Sequence record: NC_054926.1
Direction: 5' to 3' (one strand)
DNA from: Escherichia phage vB_EcoM_OE5505
DNA length: 64,000 bases
Under the pieces are notes generated by a model. The model did no database searches and was not told the origin of the DNA. It saw only the letters and a program-made list of their open reading frames with translations. The first letter of the stretch is position 1. The number at the start of each line of letters is the position of its first letter. The translations under genes and the position numbers were made by a program. Below are positions 4,334 to 11,112 of this stretch, in pieces.

Positions 4334-4650
4334 AGCATTAACGTATTTTTAGTGTCGAACATATTCTTAGAAATTTTAACAGGTGCGCGTTCAGGAGTAG
4401 CTAACACAGATTTAGGAACCTGAGCGCCAGATGCCAATTTCTTAGAAATTTTGAAAAATGCTTTATTGAATTTATTTTCTTGACTCATTGTAAAAGAACT
4501 ATTATCGATGTTGTACATTTCAATAGCTTTAGCTTTCCACTTAAGAAAATCGCCGCGGTCTTTTGGGTCCAATTGGAAGAATACTTTAGTAAGATCTGCT
4601 TCAGATGGTAATTTTGCTGCTTCGGTTAAAAATTCGGCATAGGTTTTCAT
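4330..4650 (-). CDS. Capsid-targeted internal protein (IP-like), N-terminal part
   Basis: Starts MKTYAEFLTEA, matching the T4 internal-protein capsid targeting sequence (MKTYQEFIAE-type); Ala/Lys-rich. Confidence 0.7.
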   Translation of the reverse strand: MKTYAEFLTEAAKLPSEADLTKVFFQLDPKDRGDFLKWKAKAIEMYNIDNSSFTMSQENKFNKAFFKISKKLASGAQVPKSVLATPERAPVKISKNMFDTKNTLML

Positions 4651-4740
4651 TTAAAATCCTTGAAATAATTTATCGGTTGGTTATTAATTATTTATTACTT
4701 TGTTACTATCCGTAACAGCGTTATCCGAGTGATTCAAACT

Positions 4741-4768
4741 AAAAAGCCCCAACCTTTCGGTCGGGGCT
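4741..4768 (-). terminator. Rho-independent terminator (copy 1 of duplicated element)
   Basis: Minus-strand AGCCCCGACC-GAAA-GGTTGGGGCT followed by TTTTT; downstream of ORF ending 4776. Confidence 0.65.
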
Positions 4769-4775
4769 AAGAATG

Positions 4776-5210
4776 TCATTTGATTTGTTTAGCAGACCAA
4801 ATGCGGTCTTTAATAATTTTTTGGATGTCTTCAACATACTCAAGAGAGTGAACATGTGGATTATCTTTGAAACTATAAGCACGGGCTAACTTTTGGCCTT
4901 CGGTTTTGATTACTAAAAGCTCTTTAAGGATAGCTTCATATTTAGCGATAATTCCTTTAACGATATTTTTTTCTTGTGCCGCTTTAGGATCTGCTTTAGG
5001 AGCAGGTTTACCCGAAGCCTTTGCAAAAGCAGCGCCAGTAGCAACTAAACTTTTCCAGGCCATACTAACTGCATTTCCCGTAAATCCTTCCGCTTTCATG
5101 TCGCGTGCAAACTGGAATCGCGATTCATCAGAAGCATCTTTATAGGAATAATTTACCCGCGGCAATGGCAGCTTTTGCAACAGCTTGAATTTCGGTGCTA
5201 GATGCTTCAT
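4776..5210 (-). CDS. Internal-protein-like protein, C-terminal part (frame-shifted relative to its CTS leader)
   Basis: 144 aa ORF; Ala/Lys-rich; N-terminal 22 codons overlap CTS-leader ORF in another frame. Confidence 0.6.
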   Translation of the reverse strand: MKHLAPKFKLLQKLPLPRVNYSYKDASDESRFQFARDMKAEGFTGNAVSMAWKSLVATGAAFAKASGKPAPKADPKAAQEKNIVKGIIAKYEAILKELLVIKTEGQKLARAYSFKDNPHVHSLEYVEDIQKIIKDRIWSAKQIK

Positions 5211-5250
5211 TTAACACCGCTTCATTTAAAAATTGAGTATATGATTTCAT
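5140..5250 (-). CDS. IP capsid-targeting leader ORF (MKSYTQFLNEA...), 36 codons then stop
   Basis: ATG at 5248-5250 preceded by AGGAAATAAG RBS and late promoter; CTS-like N-terminus; stops at 5140. Confidence 0.45.
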   Translation of the reverse strand: MKSYTQFLNEAVLNEASSTEIQAVAKAAIAAGKLFL

Positions 5251-5288
5251 CTTATTTCCTGTTTTAATTTGTAGATTTAATATACTAA

Positions 5289-5296
5289 TATTTATA
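5289..5296 (-). promoter_or_regulatory. T4-type late promoter box TATAAATA
   Basis: TATAAATA on minus strand about 40 nt upstream of CTS-leader ATG at 5250. Confidence 0.55.
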
Positions 5297-5298
5297 CC

Positions 5299-5326
5299 AA
5301 AAAGCCCCAACCTTTCGGTCGGGGCT
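5299..5326 (-). terminator. Rho-independent terminator (copy 2, identical to 4741-4768)
   Basis: Identical hairpin plus T-run; lies between the stable-RNA region and the IP late promoter. Confidence 0.6.
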
Positions 5327-5329
5327 AAG

Positions 5330-5633
5330 CCTTGCGGCAACCTTGTCGGGGTTCCACCTGCTAAGGCAAGTGTTTGTACGAAACGCCGGGATTCGAACCC
5401 GGTTATTAAGTAGTTGACGCTACTCAATATTTTTAAAAGGCCATATCTCGACCATATCCGAACGTTCCGTCAAAAACGCTACTCGGCTTACGGCAAAGAT
5501 ATTTCCTCGAATCGATAATTCGGTGCGCCGTTTCTGCTGTGATAGTAAAGAGCCAGAACACAGTAAAACTGTGGGAGGAAACTATACTCCAGGGAACATC
5601 AGTCCGACGACTTACCGGTAGCGACCCGGTTTC
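5330..5633 (-). ncRNA. Candidate stable small RNA(s) at the distal end of the tRNA cluster
   Basis: No ORF; tRNA-like T-arm CCGGG-TTCGAAT-CCCGG at 5386-5402 but no complete cloverleaf; position matches where T4 has stable RNA species 1/2. Confidence 0.3.
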
Positions 5634-5984
5634 TTAATATTCTTTTAAAGAATCAATATATTCACGGCGTTTACGCCACAAATCAATTGCTTCATACGCG
5701 GATTCAGCATTTCGAATTAGCCGGCATTTATGTAAAGACTTATGATTTTGATATTGTGTAGATAACGGAATTGTATCTAAAAGGTCTTTACGATCAAAAT
5801 ATTCGTAACCATCTAAACCAAATGAACGATTTTTGAGAAATTGCCAATGACCATATTCGTTTTCGACATAAACATAATCTGCATGCTGATAAAGCAAATT
5901 AATTACACGTTCAGAAATAACAGTATCATTATGATTAAAATAGAATGTTAAATCATGAACTACTAAATAAACATTACCTTTCAT
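5634..5984 (-). CDS. Hypothetical protein within tRNA cluster
   Basis: 116 aa ORF between tRNA-Arg and the RNA region, same strand. Confidence 0.6.
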   Translation of the reverse strand: MKGNVYLVVHDLTFYFNHNDTVISERVINLLYQHADYVYVENEYGHWQFLKNRSFGLDGYEYFDRKDLLDTIPLSTQYQNHKSLHKCRLIRNAESAYEAIDLWRKRREYIDSLKEY

Positions 5985-6002
5985 ATTTTCCTCACTTATA
6001 AT

Positions 6003-6078
6003 TGGTCGAGGCAGTAGGGATCGAACCTACGACCTAGGACTTAGAAGGTCCTTGCTCTTCCTTCTGAGCTATGCCCCG
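6003..6078 (-). tRNA. tRNA-Arg (anticodon UCU)
   Basis: Hand-folded cloverleaf, 76 nt, anticodon loop CUUCUAA, T-loop TTCGATC, CCA encoded. Confidence 0.85.
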
Positions 6079-6082
6079 TAAT

Positions 6083-6158
6083 TGGGGTGACCGATGGGAG
6101 TCGAACCCATGACTACGAGAATCACAATCTCGAGTTCTACCAACTGAACTACGGCCAC
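6083..6158 (-). tRNA. tRNA-His (anticodon GUG)
   Basis: 76 nt cloverleaf, anticodon loop UUGUGAU, discriminator C73 typical of tRNA-His; closely resembles E. coli tRNA-His as recalled. Confidence 0.8.
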
Positions 6159-6272
6159 ATTAATACCTACTCCAACAATCAAGATGTCTTCACACGAAAT
6201 TAAGAGAAGAGTGATCAGTTCAACCCCTATAATCGCGTCAAGTAGATATTAATGTGACAGTTGTCACAAATT

Positions 6273-6347
6273 TGGCGGACGTGATAGGATTCGAACCTAT
6301 AACCAATCGCTTAACAGGCGATCGCTCTGCCATTGAGCTACACATCC
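6273..6347 (-). tRNA. tRNA-Asn (anticodon GUU)
   Basis: 75 nt cloverleaf, anticodon loop CUGUUAA, T-loop TTCGAAT, CCA encoded. Confidence 0.8.
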
Positions 6348-6351
6348 AAAT

Positions 6352-6438
6352 TGGTGGGGAGTGGTGGAGTCGAACCACCCGAGTCGCAATGACAATGGAT
6401 TTACAGTCCACACCGCTACCTCTACGGGATAACTCCCC
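6352..6438 (-). tRNA. tRNA-Tyr (anticodon GUA), type II
   Basis: 87 nt with long variable arm, anticodon loop CUGUAAA, perfect acceptor GGGGAGT/ACTCCCC. Confidence 0.8.
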
Positions 6439-6447
6439 AAATTAATT

Positions 6448-6522
6448 TGGTGGCCCTGGGTGGAATTGAACCACCATCTGGCGATTATGAGTCGCTTGCT
6501 TGAACCTTCCAGCTACAGGGCC
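6448..6522 (-). tRNA. tRNA with CAU anticodon (Ile-lysidine type or Met)
   Basis: 75 nt cloverleaf, anticodon loop CUCAUAA; T4 tRNA-Ile also carries CAU. Confidence 0.75.
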
Positions 6523-6531
6523 AAATTTTTC

Positions 6532-7017
6532 TTATTTTATGTAATATTTATTTAAAAACTTTCTAGCTTGAGTATGGCTAACATTTATAGCGTTTGCATA
6601 ATTTTTAATAAAACCTCGTTCATCCATATTAAAATTTTCTAATATTTTTAATCGTCTAATTATCTCATCTTGGCTTAAGGTACTTGCATTATTTTTAGAA
6701 ATTTTTTCTAAAGACTGCACTGAGTGTTTTCGACCATTAAAATTAAAATTTTTAGGTTTTGGAGGAAATCTATCATTTAGTCTCGCATCTTTTGTATTTT
6801 GATTATTAGTTGCGCAATATATGTTATTTAATGAGTATGGTCCTTTATCACCAAAACGACACATACAGTATTCATGACCCTTTCTTCCACGCTTATCATA
6901 ATTTCCTGTTGATTTCCACCAATTTAACCACTCATCAAAAGTTAAATTCCATTCAATGTTTCTACGTATAGCAGAATTCCGCTGAGAAATATATTTTGCA
7001 TAATCTTCTTTCATCAC
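6532..7017 (-). CDS. Homing-endonuclease-like protein (degenerate HNH-like N-terminus, C-terminal HTH)
   Basis: 161 aa; Cys/His motif GHEYCMCRF...LNNIYCATNNQN; C-terminal ...NVSHTQARKFLNKYY resembles the HTH tail of the adjacent HNH ORF. Confidence 0.6.
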   Translation of the reverse strand: MMKEDYAKYISQRNSAIRRNIEWNLTFDEWLNWWKSTGNYDKRGRKGHEYCMCRFGDKGPYSLNNIYCATNNQNTKDARLNDRFPPKPKNFNFNGRKHSVQSLEKISKNNASTLSQDEIIRRLKILENFNMDERGFIKNYANAINVSHTQARKFLNKYYIK

Positions 7018-7061
7018 AAATTTCTCTACTTATTACATGCACTAAGCTAAATCAGCAAAAC

Positions 7062-7151
7062 TGGCGGAGGCGATAGGATTTGAACCTATGAGTCGCCGGA
7101 GCGACTGCCGGTTTTCAAGACCGGTGCATTAAACCACTCTGCCACGCCTCC
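7062..7151 (-). tRNA. tRNA-Ser (anticodon UGA), type II
   Basis: 90 nt, long variable arm, anticodon loop CUUGAAA, acceptor GGAGGCG/CGCCTCC, CCA encoded. Confidence 0.85.
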
Positions 7152-7153
7152 AG

Positions 7154-7227
7154 TCTCCATACAAGGATTTGAACCTTGGACCTCCTGATCCCAAATCAGG
7201 CGCTCTACCAAACTGAGCTACACGGAG
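7154..7227 (-). tRNA. tRNA-Pro (anticodon UGG), CCA not encoded
   Basis: 74 nt, anticodon loop UUUGGGA, only 2 nt from tRNA-Ser (Pro-Ser dimer as in T4). Confidence 0.8.
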
Positions 7228-7237
7228 TAAATTAAAT

Positions 7238-7311
<74 letters not shown>

Positions 7312-7316
7312 AAATT

Positions 7317-7403
7317 TGGTGCGAGAAGTGGGACTCGAACCCACAAGGAAATCATTCCGCAGCATTTTAAGTGCTGTGCCTTTACCAATTTGACCATTCT
7401 CGC
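7317..7403 (-). tRNA. tRNA-Leu (anticodon UAA), type II
   Basis: 87 nt, long variable arm, anticodon loop CUUAAAA, acceptor GCGAGAA/TTCTCGC. Confidence 0.85.
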
Positions 7404-7409
7404 GCTATA

Positions 7410-8018
7410 TTATTTATTACGTGAAAAAGACTGTTCTATCAATTCTGGACACTTTCGTTCTATCCATTTTCTAGCTTTTTGTGGGCTTATACCTATTATT
7501 TTAGCAGCTTTACTAACCCATCCAAATTTAAAATAATCGATTTTAACTAATTCTTCGTAAATTTCATCAGTTAAAATCTTTTCATTAATATTTACCAGTA
7601 AATGATATAATTTATTATCATTAGCAATTTTAATGAATCTTTTATAGTTTCCGCCTTTACTTAAACCTAATGAAGTAATTGCAGATGATATAGTAGCCGA
7701 ATTTAATAGTGCGTTTAAAATTTCTTCATCACTAACATTATAACGCTTTCTATTATTTTTAATATTTTTACCAGCAAAAGTATCAGTTTGCGAATGGCAA
7801 TTTGGACATAATAATCTTAAATTTGATTTAAGATGATTTTTGTTATTTCCATCAATATGGTCTAATTGTAGAACAATATGCTTATTTTGCCATTTTGAAA
7901 TTTTACAAATTGCACACTCATATGGAAAAATATTTTCTTTTATTATTTTGTCTTTTAGCTTTCCTGTACTAAAATTTGGATGTTTTCCTTCAAAAATTTC
8001 AGCTAATTTAGTATCCAT
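7410..8018 (-). CDS. HNH homing endonuclease
   Basis: CAICKISKW...LDHIDGNNKNH...LLCPNCH HNH/zinc motif; C-terminal HTH; ATG at 8018 (ORF track extends to a TTG at 8042). Confidence 0.85.
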   Translation of the reverse strand: MDTKLAEIFEGKHPNFSTGKLKDKIIKENIFPYECAICKISKWQNKHIVLQLDHIDGNNKNHLKSNLRLLCPNCHSQTDTFAGKNIKNNRKRYNVSDEEILNALLNSATISSAITSLGLSKGGNYKRFIKIANDNKLYHLLVNINEKILTDEIYEELVKIDYFKFGWVSKAAKIIGISPQKARKWIERKCPELIEQSFSRNK

Positions 8019-8128
8019 AATATGATTCCCAATTATTAACAAAGGCTCTTAAGCAAGAACCCTTGATGATAGAGGGTATTAATCAGTGCGATATGAGTTA
8101 ATAATAACAAATAATTCTTAAAGCATAT

Positions 8129-8416
8129 TTACCATTTATAATAATACATATTTACGATGCATTCAAGACCCAAAGGATTCTTGAAAATATCATATTCAAG
8201 AGGACCTTTTTCTGTTTCAATAAAGAAATCAAAATTTACTGTATTAAATTTACGTTCTTCCTTCACTAATTTAACTTGAGAAGATGAACGGTCAATGTAA
8301 ACCTTTTCAACTTCAAAACATGTTAAAATGCCATAATCATCAATCAAAGCTTTAGCCGCGTCTTGATCATATTTATATCCATTTTCAATGGATGATACTT
8401 TCGCATAAAGAATCAT
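8129..8416 (-). CDS. Hypothetical protein
   Basis: 95 aa ORF, tightly packed with neighbours on minus strand. Confidence 0.6.
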   Translation of the reverse strand: MILYAKVSSIENGYKYDQDAAKALIDDYGILTCFEVEKVYIDRSSSQVKLVKEERKFNTVNFDFFIETEKGPLEYDIFKNPLGLECIVNMYYYKW

Positions 8417-8418
8417 TA

Positions 8419-8817
8419 TCAGCCTTCATCAACAATAGTGTGAGTATTAGCATTTACGATTTGCCACCAATCAAAGCGATTAGAATCCATCGGTTTGTTT
8501 TCATTTTCTTTGATAATGTCACGGAGTTCATCTTCAGAGAATGCTTTAGCAATTAAATCGGTATACCCACCACGGGGATAATAATTATCACCTGCAAACA
8601 AAAGGAAATTTACCTTCCCGGAAGCAACATATGCTTCCTTAGGATACTTGTTTCCTGCGTGGTCAACCACTTCAATATAACGGTAAGGAATATCGGTTCT
8701 TTCAACCCATTGCCATGCCGCCGCAGGGGAATCGAAAGCATCTACACCTAAACGATTATCTTCATCTTTAGACGGATTATTTTCGTAATCCGCATATACA
8801 TAATATTCAACGTTCAT
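8419..8817 (-). CDS. Hypothetical protein
   Basis: 132 aa ORF; stop overlaps next gene start. Confidence 0.65.
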   Translation of the reverse strand: MNVEYYVYADYENNPSKDEDNRLGVDAFDSPAAAWQWVERTDIPYRYIEVVDHAGNKYPKEAYVASGKVNFLLFAGDNYYPRGGYTDLIAKAFSEDELRDIIKENENKPMDSNRFDWWQIVNANTHTIVDEG

Positions 8818-9002
8818 TATTCACCTTTAGAAATTTTATCCATAACAATAGCAATTAAACCAATTAAAAATGCTACTACAAGTGAAAACACATTTTCTGC
8901 TGTAGTCAATAATCCACATATAAATCCAACAAACATTGAAAAACTAAAAGCGGAAGCAGAAATTGCAATAGCAACATTTCGAATTAATTCACAACGTTTC
9001 AT
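8817..9002 (-). CDS. Hypothetical small membrane protein
   Basis: 61 aa, two hydrophobic helices (AIAISASAFSFSMFVGFICGLL / LVVAFLIGLIAIV). Confidence 0.55.
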   Translation of the reverse strand: MKRCELIRNVAIAISASAFSFSMFVGFICGLLTTAENVFSLVVAFLIGLIAIVMDKISKGE

Positions 9003-9021
9003 TTTATTCTCCTCAGTAGTA

Positions 9022-9049
9022 GATAGGGTAATAGTATCACTACCCTATC
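9022..9049 (-). repeat. Intercistronic hairpin module (copy C)
   Basis: GATAGGGTA-ATAGTATCAC-TACCCTATC, 9-bp stem; related copies at 9321-9352 and 9651-9678. Confidence 0.6.
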
Positions 9050-9060
9050 TAAAAGTAAAC

Positions 9061-9294
9061 TTATTTTTTACGAAAAATTGATTTATTTTCTGCTGCCCAT
9101 TTTTCAATAACTGCAGCAGGACCAGTAACAACAATTTTATCACCGTAATCTTCTGCGGCGAGTTGACCGAAATTATCTAATGCATCACGAAGAACTCCAT
9201 GAGGCATTTCACCCATTTTATCTTTCTTGCCAGTGTAAATAAACTCAACTTTTACATCAGCAGTTTCAGCAATAAATTCTTGGTAAGTTTTCAT
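9061..9294 (-). CDS. Capsid-targeted internal protein (IPI-like)
   Basis: Starts MKTYQEFIAE (canonical T4 IP capsid targeting sequence) at second ATG; 77 aa. Confidence 0.8.
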   Translation of the reverse strand: MKTYQEFIAETADVKVEFIYTGKKDKMGEMPHGVLRDALDNFGQLAAEDYGDKIVVTGPAAVIEKWAAENKSIFRKK

Positions 9295-9319
9295 TTTGAT
9301 TTCCATTTGGTTTTGTTTT

Positions 9320-9382
9320 GATAGGGTAATAGTATCACAACTAAAACCCTATGTAAACAACTTTGTGAAATTATTTTAAATC
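9320..9382 (-). repeat. Cassette junction repeat (hairpin plus 33-bp 3-prime-end module, copy B)
   Basis: 33 bp 9350-9382 identical to 9681-9713; preceded by hairpin ATAGGGT...ACCCTAT. Confidence 0.65.
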
Positions 9383-9628
9383 TTCTAATCGTTTCTTCAT
9401 CTTAGAACCATTTTTAGCAATTTCTCCTGCATCGGAGCATAATGCTAAAAGTGCTTTAACTTTAGTTTGGTCTCCTTTAAAAGATGAAGGATCGACCGCA
9501 GCAGCAAGTTCTTTAATACGAGAGAAAAGACGCTCAGCTTCAGCTAAAGCCATTCCAAGCTTTACTTCCATACCGTGGGAAGATTCAGTGATAGTAGTTT
9601 TTGTAGCAAACTCTTTGAAAGTTTTCAT
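9371..9628 (-). CDS. Internal-protein-like protein
   Basis: 85 aa, starts MKTFKEFATK (CTS-like), ends EDLK like 57B; preceded by AGGAAA RBS. Confidence 0.7.
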   Translation of the reverse strand: MKTFKEFATKTTITESSHGMEVKLGMALAEAERLFSRIKELAAAVDPSSFKGDQTKVKALLALCSDAGEIAKNGSKMKKRLEDLK

Positions 9629-9650
9629 TTTTATTTTCCTAATTAATTTT

Positions 9651-10386
<736 letters not shown>

Positions 10387-10387
<1 letters not shown>

Positions 10388-11112
10388 TATAGTACCTTTA
10401 GTGTATTTTTAATTTTAGAAAAAAGTTCTTCAAGAGAACCATCGTTTGTAATTACTAAATCGCCATCACGAATTGGCAATCCAGCTTCTGTAATATGTGT
10501 ATCATTGGATTTTTGACCAGGACGAACTACATGAATTACTGTAGCACCCATCGCCCTAGCCGCATCCATTTCATGATCTTGACGGGTATCAGGAACGATA
10601 TAATAATCATAACCTGAGTTAAATTTATCAAGATAATCTAAAGCAAATAATTTTACCCAGTACATGCGGTCGAAGTTATTAACAATCAAATCCGTACCTA
10701 GGGCTTGCATCAGACGACGGACTGACCATTGATCTTCAATATTATTTATAACGTCAATAATCTTGTTAAATGCTACGGAATTAACTGATTCTTGTCCTTC
10801 GTCATCAAAAACAAACACACCTTTAATTGGGCTTTTACCATTAAGATAGCAAAATGCTTGTTCCATAATCGTGATTACTTCTAATTTAGTTAGATTTAAA
10901 TTAGTCTCACGATCATAGTCAATTCCTTCAAACTCTTTACGAGTTAAGCAAGGATAGTCGGTATTTGCAGCAAATACTCCCCATGCATAAGCCAATGCAT
11001 CCTTAATAGGACCAGCAAGTTGGTATTTAACTGCAGAATAATTGCTCATGATAAAATCAGCAGTAGTATCTTTTCCACTACGCTTTACACCGCTTAAAAA
11101 GATTAGTTTCAT
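10387..11112 (-). CDS. 1: dNMP kinase (gene 1)
   Basis: 241 aa; P-loop GVKRSGKDT; length and position match T4 gp1. Confidence 0.9.

Follow-up and report, generated by a model that had tools for sequence, protein, structure and literature searches.

What are the three small open reading frames (ORFs) that lie between an HNH endonuclease gene and the internal-protein (IP) genes of Escherichia phage vB_EcoM_OE5505, and what might they do beside the transfer RNA (tRNA) cluster downstream of them? The stretch analysed here, referred to as the window, comprises 64,000 nt of sequence record NC_054926.1, and the three ORFs occupy positions 8129–9002 on its minus strand. They are, with near certainty, the T4-type early accessory genes trna.4, trna.3 and trna.2, arranged in one translationally coupled unit. 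These genes are already known and long annotated in hundreds of genomes, and they represent no new kind of element; the T4 tRNA region that includes trna.2–trna.4 was sequenced decades ago, and as sequence the feature is ordinary. The new content is modest and comes from comparative data, from which we infer a linkage of the Trna.2 family (Pfam PF27001) to tRNA loci across phage families and a duplicated, mosaic architecture of Trna.3.

8129–8416, minus strand: trna.2, 95 aa, acidic (pI 4.8); modelled as a strand and a helix followed by an SH3-like β-barrel
8419–8817, minus strand: trna.3, 132 aa, acidic (pI 4.4); a variable N-domain and a conserved C-domain
8817–9002, minus strand: trna.4, 61 aa; predicted inner-membrane hairpin of two hydrophobic helices

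Three known T4 genes in one coupled unit

The first-pass annotation of this DNA, made from the letters alone, had described three translationally coupled ORFs of exactly these coordinates and sizes, one of them encoding a membrane protein and none carrying a recognisable motif. All of this held; what it missed, in calling the ORFs unknown, was their identity as long-annotated T4 genes, two of which now have Pfam families. The coupling can be read directly in the sequence: the trna.4 stop and the trna.3 start overlap in TAATG, only TA separates the TGA stop of trna.3 from the ATG of trna.2 (TGAtaATG), and a Shine–Dalgarno-like motif precedes each of the three starts (GAGGAG, AAGGTG and GAAGG).

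In direct comparison with the T4 proteins (UniProt P13324, P13323 and P13322 for trna.2, trna.3 and trna.4), Trna.2 is 94% identical over 95 aa (E 1e-68), Trna.3 is 64% identical (E 4e-54) and Trna.4 is identical at all 61 of 61 residues (100%). Phage Bas37 (KarlGJung, of the BASEL collection) is closer still, with bas37_0257, bas37_0258 and bas37_0259 matching Trna.2, Trna.3 and Trna.4 at 94/95, 132/132 and 61/61 residues, and the annotation of the relative ACG-C40 labels the three ORFs as similar to T4 Trna.2, Trna.3 and Trna.4. At the DNA level, positions 7400–9700 match Yersinia phage PYps5T at 100% identity and many Tequatrovirus genomes at ~99%. Because full-length relatives occur in ~760–800 phage records and the T4 Trna.2 and Trna.3 proteins have been detected, these are real genes and not chance ORFs.

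Family databases place the proteins in recognised groups. The PHROGs assignments are phrog_2023 for Trna.2 (E 2.2e-47, residues 1–95), phrog_1411 for Trna.3 (E 2.7e-55) and phrog_1692 for Trna.4 (E 6e-35), each bearing the family label 'unknown function', and precomputed Pfam labels on relatives are PF27001 (Phage_T4_Y07B) for Trna.2, carried by all Trna.2 relatives, and PF26894 (Phage_T4_Y07C) for Trna.3. Scans of the three ORFs against a local copy of Pfam, NCBIfam and PADLOC gave no match above cut-off, the nearest Pfam match for Trna.2 being DUF5092 (E 0.004; 17.6 bits, below the cut-off of 27). Sequence searches of the PDB with the Trna.2 and Trna.3 family profiles returned no match, no paralogue of either family was found among all ORFs of the window, and an Rfam search of 4500–10500 returned tRNAs and sub-threshold noise only, with nothing inside 8129–9002.

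We also considered whether the three products could themselves be internal proteins, injected with the DNA. They resemble T4-type internal proteins in that the neighbouring IP genes, like trna.4, follow a PeSL element (an early promoter overlapped by a stem-loop), and all are small and non-essential. They differ in the N-terminal capsid-targeting sequence: the two IP genes have leaders of the MKTYQEFIAE type (MKTYQEFIAE and MKTFKEFATK), and the three proteins, which begin MILYAKVSS, MNVEYYVYA and MKRCELIRN, have none. This assignment was rejected.

The Trna.2 family recurs beside tRNA genes

To trace Trna.2 beyond close relatives of T4, a profile was seeded with divergent homologues from phage records; the search yielded 73 clusters down to ~25% identity. 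In a sample from IMG/VR, a same-strand tRNA gene lay within 900 nt at 17 of 22 Trna.2-family loci, compared with a tRNA within 1.6 kb at 3 of 18 loci of a control family, the stand-alone relatives of the Trna.3 C-domain described below. The family member sits inside tRNA clusters of Roskildevirus Cronus and another T4-like contig, of the jumbo phages XbC2 (Mimasvirus) and pEa_SNUABM_44 (Eneladusvirus), and of a metagenomic phage type, and in two N4-like contigs it precedes tRNA genes by 32 nt. In Mydovirus-type phages it overlaps the start of the gene for tRNA nucleotidyltransferase, the CCA-adding enzyme, or lies ~800 nt from it, and in one metagenomic phage that has no tRNAs nearby an RtcB RNA-repair ligase is encoded 2.1 kb upstream of it. 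Counting each lineage once, a tRNA-related neighbour is present in roughly 6 of 9–10 lineages, against a background of ~10–15% (informal binomial p < 0.01). Trna.2 of the window conforms to this arrangement, standing immediately upstream of the tRNA region in the order trna.2, middle promoter, HNH gene, tRNAs.

Unrelated phage families thus keep Trna.2 homologues of only 25–40% identity beside tRNA-related genes. The pair tRNA-Asn(GTT) and tRNA-Ile(GAT) recurs on the two sides of the Y07B gene in N4-like, jumbo and T4-like phages (loci L012, L044, L048, L049, L008, L047 and L004). Recent transfer of tRNA-Asn, Y07B and tRNA-Ile as one module was rejected as an account of the linkage, since the flanking tRNA-Asn genes are only ~60–70% identical between lineages. 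In at least five lineages the family is a repeated neighbour of loci that supply or repair phage tRNA (tRNA genes, CCA-adding tRNA nucleotidyltransferase, RtcB, T4 Pnk/Rnl1); the relation to such enzymes is positional only, as Trna.2 has no catalytic motif, homology or predicted enzymatic site.

An AlphaFold2 model of Trna.2, built with the family alignment, has a predicted local distance difference test score (pLDDT) of 92 and a predicted template modelling score (pTM) of 0.81; a strand and a helix at its N-terminus lead into a small β-barrel. All of its best structural matches are SH3-like or KOW β-barrels (ribosomal uL24, the KOW domains of Spt5/NusG, bacterial SH3b), so that the barrel is confidently predicted to be SH3-like. 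A Foldseek search of the model against BFVD returned uncharacterised viral homologues only.

At three Trna.2-family loci (L008, L013 and L014), a 76-aa gene with the Pfam domain Acb2_Tad1_hairpin lies ~1 kb upstream of the Y07B homologue, in the same tRNA cluster. Counter-defence genes and tRNAs therefore share islands in other phages too.

Trna.3 as a probable mosaic of two domains

Trna.3 divides at its midpoint into two domains:

8620–8817, minus strand: Trna.3 N-domain, residues 1–66, variable
8422–8619, minus strand: Trna.3 C-domain, residues 67–132, conserved, with the motif FLLFAGDNYYPxGG...FDWWQIVN

DNA identity to T4 is ~97% across trna.4, falls abruptly to 55–70% across trna.3 and returns to 93–100% across trna.2, with the immediate flanks of trna.3 95–98% identical. 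Within the Trna.3 family, mean pairwise identity is 47% for the N half (minimum 19%) and 75% for the C half, and the columns of the motif NFLLFAGDNYYPxGG...FDWWQIVN are invariant in 21 Trna.3 sequences and present here. Alleles also differ in how the halves are combined: one pair of proteins shares 98% of the N half and 73% of the C half, and another 31% and 88%, respectively.

A profile search of 1.84 billion representatives recovered 552 proteins at E ≤ 0.001, almost all matching profile positions 64–127 only, and most 55–110 aa long. The stand-alone C-domain proteins share the signature [FY]L[LV]F[AG]GxxYYPxGGxxD ... WW[QH]IVD, and the C-domain of Trna.3 is a typical member of this group of ~65-aa proteins, which fall in phrog_1411, phrog_17649 and phrog_4811 ('unknown function'). 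They are mostly single-domain and scattered in unrelated phages, with a few fused to an XRE-type helix-turn-helix. Across 18 loci, none of their neighbouring genes recurred beyond closely related phages.

The AlphaFold2 model of Trna.3 (pLDDT 85, pTM 0.49) consists of two small α/β domains whose secondary-structure elements follow in identical order; the low pTM is expected for two loosely packed domains. By hhalign, the N-domain aligns with the stand-alone family over 51 columns (probability 76%, E 2.3e-5), and its alignment with its own C-half alone was not significant. Trna.3 thus appears to have arisen by tandem duplication of a ~65-aa domain widespread in phages, the N-domain being a degenerate, hypervariable copy. 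With its double copy and one hypervariable half, the protein is a convenient entry point to this small phage domain family.

Some T4-like phages carry a 60–70-aa ORF at the trna.3 position (in Gelderlandvirus, locus L007 2289–2501; locus L047 976–1158). The ORF in the latter is a 60-aa PF26894 member that adjoins Acb1 and lies ~3 kb from the Y07B gene. Such short ORFs fit a modular, two-domain origin of Trna.3.

Trna.4 as a predicted membrane hairpin

Hydrophobic segments of Trna.4 span residues ~9–32 and 35–54, between charged ends, and two 19-residue hydropathy windows score above 1.9. The protein is therefore predicted to be a two-helix hairpin of the inner membrane. Pfam holds an Imm family; a Pfam scan of Trna.4 at E ≤ 1 for homology to Imm or Sp gave three sub-threshold, unrelated matches only.

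An early promoter upstream and a middle promoter downstream

Two regulatory features bracket the unit:

9003–9060, minus strand: PeSL-type element upstream of trna.4, an early promoter with an overlapping stem-loop and a Shine–Dalgarno sequence
8101–8125, minus strand: MotA-box middle-promoter motif (TGCTTTA, 12 nt, TATTAT), located by pattern search

The early promoter consists of GTTTAC at 9060–9055, 18 nt and a TG-extended −10 element, TACTAT, at 9036–9031; the arms of the stem-loop lie at ~9051–9041 and 9030–9020, and the strong Shine–Dalgarno sequence GAGGAG at 9014–9009. The predicted RNA fold has a free energy of −19.5 kcal/mol (z = −4.2). Three copies on the minus strand of the window (9003–9060, 9307–9370 and 9629–9701; z = −3.6 to −4.2) stand before trna.4 and before each IP gene, and they align with the T4 copies before trna.4 and ipI, with GTTTAC and GTGATACTATTACC invariant and the stem arms differing between copies on both sides. 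A conserved early promoter overlapped by a stem-loop is thus repeated between small early genes, as in the PeSL cassette of T4-type phages, which is described as a promoter–terminator and recombination module between such genes (PMC2839356, PMC4122927). Compared with T4, the copy before trna.4 is truncated on its 5′ side.

The MotA-type motif begins 4 nt past the trna.2 stop and points towards the HNH gene and the tRNA cluster; the pattern occurs 13 times in the window (2.3 expected). In T4, transcription of the tRNA precursor is reported to be driven from a middle promoter just 5′ of the cluster, in a passage of PMC2330249 that cites Broida and Abelson (1985). An intrinsic terminator dividing trna.2 from the tRNA cluster was considered and dropped, as no terminator-like site was found in 6900–10300; early transcription from the PeSL promoter could therefore read through the HNH gene and reach the nine tRNA genes. 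The trna.4–trna.3–trna.2 unit itself is, with near certainty, driven by the PeSL early promoter, and its downstream limit is the middle promoter of that cluster.

A conserved block in T-even phages

Matches by tblastn were found in 802 phage records for Trna.2, 762 for Trna.3 and 789 for Trna.4. For comparison, the core gene dNMP kinase matched 1413 records, ~680 of them at ≥60% identity to the window copy. Counted per gene, ~800 matches against ~680 closest records suggest that the block is general in the T-even group of E. coli, Shigella and Yersinia. Further matches occur in phages of Klebsiella, Enterobacter, Salmonella, Serratia, Edwardsiella and Erwinia; Aeromonas and Acinetobacter were absent from the organisms listed among the tblastn matches. 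In hundreds of phages Trna.2 and Trna.4 hardly vary, and Trna.4 is at least 99% identical in 427 records.

The order IP locus, trna.4, trna.3, trna.2, tRNAs is kept in the T4, ACG-C40, Dhakavirus and Bas37 loci; those of Marfavirus and Gelderlandvirus were checked for a trna.2 homologue adjoining tRNA genes, which is present. The window shares with T4 trna.2–4 and with bas37_0257–0259 the gene order, the coupling, the upstream PeSL promoter and the downstream tRNA cluster. It differs from T4 in carrying the Bas37/PYps-type allele of trna.3 and an HNH endonuclease gene at the position of the T4 tRNA-Gln, a tRNA that the window lacks. The ORFs had been taken to lie in a variable segment. By this comparison trna.4–trna.3–trna.2 is a conserved block, and the variable parts are the IP cassette, the HNH insertion and the trna.3 allele.

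Early expression and dispensability

In time-resolved omics of T4 infection, trna.2 and trna.3 are early at both the RNA and the protein level; trna.4 is early at the RNA level, and its protein was not detected (PMC9697503, supplement). A transposon-sequencing preprint (HIDEN-SEQ; 10.1101/2025.11.20.689424) found all three genes non-essential in T4 and in Bas37, with 23/25, 39/40 and 16/17 TA sites disrupted in T4 trna.2, trna.3 and trna.4 and 25/25, 28/31 and 16/16 in bas37_0257, bas37_0258 and bas37_0259.

From the same study we used three of the six Bas37 host comparisons (K-12 versus the uropathogenic hosts CFT073, CFE299 and CFE303) and one T4 comparison. In these tables, the log2 fold changes (log2FC) for bas37_0257, bas37_0258 and bas37_0259 were −0.13, −0.06 and +0.06 on CFT073, −0.15, −0.09 and +0.01 on CFE299 and −0.23, −0.25 and −0.01 on CFE303, all with an adjusted p of 1, unlike bas37_0260 and bas37_0261, which responded strongly. 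In the one T4 table, trna.2–4 were likewise neutral. The genes are therefore dispensable in laboratory and several clinical E. coli hosts.

One report connects Trna.2 to a host defence system. In a study of the reverse transcriptase DRT1, Inh and Trna.2 were the sole T4 proteins enriched with the active, DNA-adducted enzyme over a reverse-transcriptase-dead control; the authors left the Trna.2 enrichment without follow-up and saw no link to sensitivity (PMC13275509).

What the three proteins may do

We favour a reading in three parts, to which, taken jointly, we assign a probability of roughly 0.35: Trna.2 would be an accessory of the phage tRNA toolkit, Trna.3 a pseudo-dimeric binder and Trna.4 a membrane protein. 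As a small SH3-like-barrel protein, Trna.2 would work with the phage's tRNA supply and repair functions by binding tRNA, or a host protein that handles or attacks tRNA, so that phage tRNAs stay usable while the host attacks or depletes tRNA. In the fused pseudo-dimer of Trna.3, the conserved C-terminal copy would bear the common activity or contact and the hypervariable N-terminal copy would fit the protein to a host partner that varies. For Trna.4, a two-helix inner-membrane protein, the link to the other two seen here is co-translation.

Several points weigh against this reading. The tie of Trna.2 to tRNA is guilt by association; tRNA clusters lie in hyperplastic regions that gather small accessory genes. 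An acidic protein such as Trna.2 would also be an unusual RNA binder. Some family members have no tRNA-related neighbour (L072 and L073, which are flanked by a DNA methylase and RecU, and L015 and L045), the RtcB neighbourhood comes from a single phage, and the hhalign backing for the Trna.3 duplication is moderate. Finally, in the transposon-sequencing tables for four hosts, neither trna.2–4 nor the phage tRNAs showed a phenotype, so that the condition in which a tRNA-linked role matters would lie outside these hosts (10.1101/2025.11.20.689424).

A bolder form of the Trna.2 proposal, which we consider unlikely, makes PF27001 a previously unrecognised accessory of phage tRNA supply and repair modules that binds tRNA or a tRNA-targeting host nuclease and answers tRNA-directed immunity; the DRT1 pull-down could then offer an initial view of a host immune sensor that recognises Trna.2. 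Were the tRNA link true, it would add a protein component to the picture of phage tRNAs countering tRNA-cleaving immunity. The association of PF27001 with tRNA genes and tRNA-repair enzymes points to tRNA-targeting hosts and defences as the ones to test.

The tRNA-toolkit reading overlaps with a more generic rival, and both would be satisfied if the proteins acted against tRNA-targeting immunity. Under the rival, at least one of the three proteins directly inhibits a host immune system unrelated to tRNA. Trna.2 might act on DRT1-type reverse-transcriptase systems, for example, or Trna.3 might be a sponge or binder whose N-domain is in an arms race. Such direct inhibition is conceivable but doubtful. 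The genes are early, non-essential and flanked by proven counter-defence genes, Acb1 and bas37_0260 (identical to window positions 9061–9294), both soluble proteins are acidic, and the N half of Trna.3 is hypervariable and recombining. Yet none of the three has homology in Pfam or PHROGs to described anti-defence families (Acb1, Acb2/Tad1, Ocr and others), and, although few hosts are concerned, no fitness shift was seen on CFT073, CFE299 or CFE303 (log2FC −0.25 to +0.06, adjusted p = 1) where the neighbouring genes did respond. Just two T4 proteins, Trna.2 among them, showed enrichment with the active DRT1 enzyme, and the authors of that study saw no link to sensitivity (PMC13275509). With Trna.4 100% and Trna.2 94% identical to T4, these proteins are unusually static for arms-race genes, and the tracking of tRNA loci by the Trna.2 family indicates a more specific role.

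There are two further alternatives. Small early membrane proteins of T4 with exclusion- or lysis-type roles include Imm and rI, and Trna.4, alone or with partners, might similarly act at the membrane, by excluding superinfection, controlling the injection of DNA or protein, or timing lysis, leaving the tRNA linkage as merely positional. The two-helix hairpin with charged ends, the early transcription of trna.4 and its extreme conservation (at least 99% in 427 records) agree with this, but Pfam at E ≤ 1 offers no match to Imm or another described family, the protein was not detected in T4 proteomics (PMC9697503), and the gene is non-essential and neutral in transposon sequencing, an assay that does not measure superinfection; we think this role improbable. 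Still less probable in our estimation is that the ORFs are near-neutral cargo of little fitness value and persist because of their site, with a recombinogenic PeSL promoter on one side and the tRNA cluster on the other, or that their effect is confined to cis; their translation might, for instance, stabilise the long early transcript. Hitch-hiking would explain why trna.2–4 lack a phenotype in the published screens consulted (transposon sequencing), the site lies between repeated PeSL elements, which are known cassette shufflers (PMC2839356), and the control family of stand-alone C-domains is at times near tRNAs too. It is harder to reconcile with intact full-length ORFs in ~800 genomes of several genera under strong amino-acid conservation, with the confident, compact fold of Trna.2 and the detection of proteins in infection, or with the retention of the Trna.2 family beside tRNA-related genes in unrelated phage families at 25–40% identity.

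Neighbouring genes

The surroundings are as the first-pass annotation had described them, with an HNH gene on one side and two IP-type genes and the anti-CBASS gene Acb1/57B on the other:

6003–7403, minus strand: tRNA cluster (Leu, Gly, Pro, Ser, an ORF, Met, Tyr, Asn, His, Arg), from ARAGORN and Rfam
7410–8042, minus strand: HNH homing-endonuclease gene (phrog_14736, similar to T5 F-TflIV), between trna.2 and tRNA-Leu
9061–9306 (annotated start 9294), minus strand: 'Ip6-like' gene with leader MKTYQEF, 77/77 aa identical to bas37_0260
9371–9628, minus strand: 'Ip5-like' gene with leader MKTFKEF, 85/85 aa identical to bas37_0261
9702–10160: Acb1/57B (Pfam Acb1, E 2.7e-60)

The tRNA cluster is the conserved downstream neighbour of trna.4–trna.3–trna.2, on the same strand. 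E. coli CFT073 is a classic GmrSD host. In the HIDEN-SEQ tables, insertions in bas37_0261 were depleted on CFT073 (log2FC −2.09, adjusted p ~0) and not on CFE299 or CFE303 (10.1101/2025.11.20.689424); because of this depletion and the GmrSD status of that host, the 'Ip5-like' gene may be this phage's functional analogue of IPI*. The product of bas37_0260 is an injected-protein-type inhibitor of McrBC, whose deletion mutant turns McrBC-sensitive (2025 preprint). As the 'Ip6-like' protein is identical to it at 77/77 residues, the cassette adjoining trna.4 already has an experimentally assigned counter-defence function.

Within the tRNA cluster, a 161-aa ORF (6532–7017, minus strand; phrog_16521, 'unknown function') lies between tRNA-Met and tRNA-Ser, at a position occupied by segB in T4 and by tRNA-Thr in ACG-C40. 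The C-terminal half of the HNH protein encoded at 7410–8042 weakly matches phrog_16521, and the ORF may be a second, possibly degenerate, endonuclease-related insertion.

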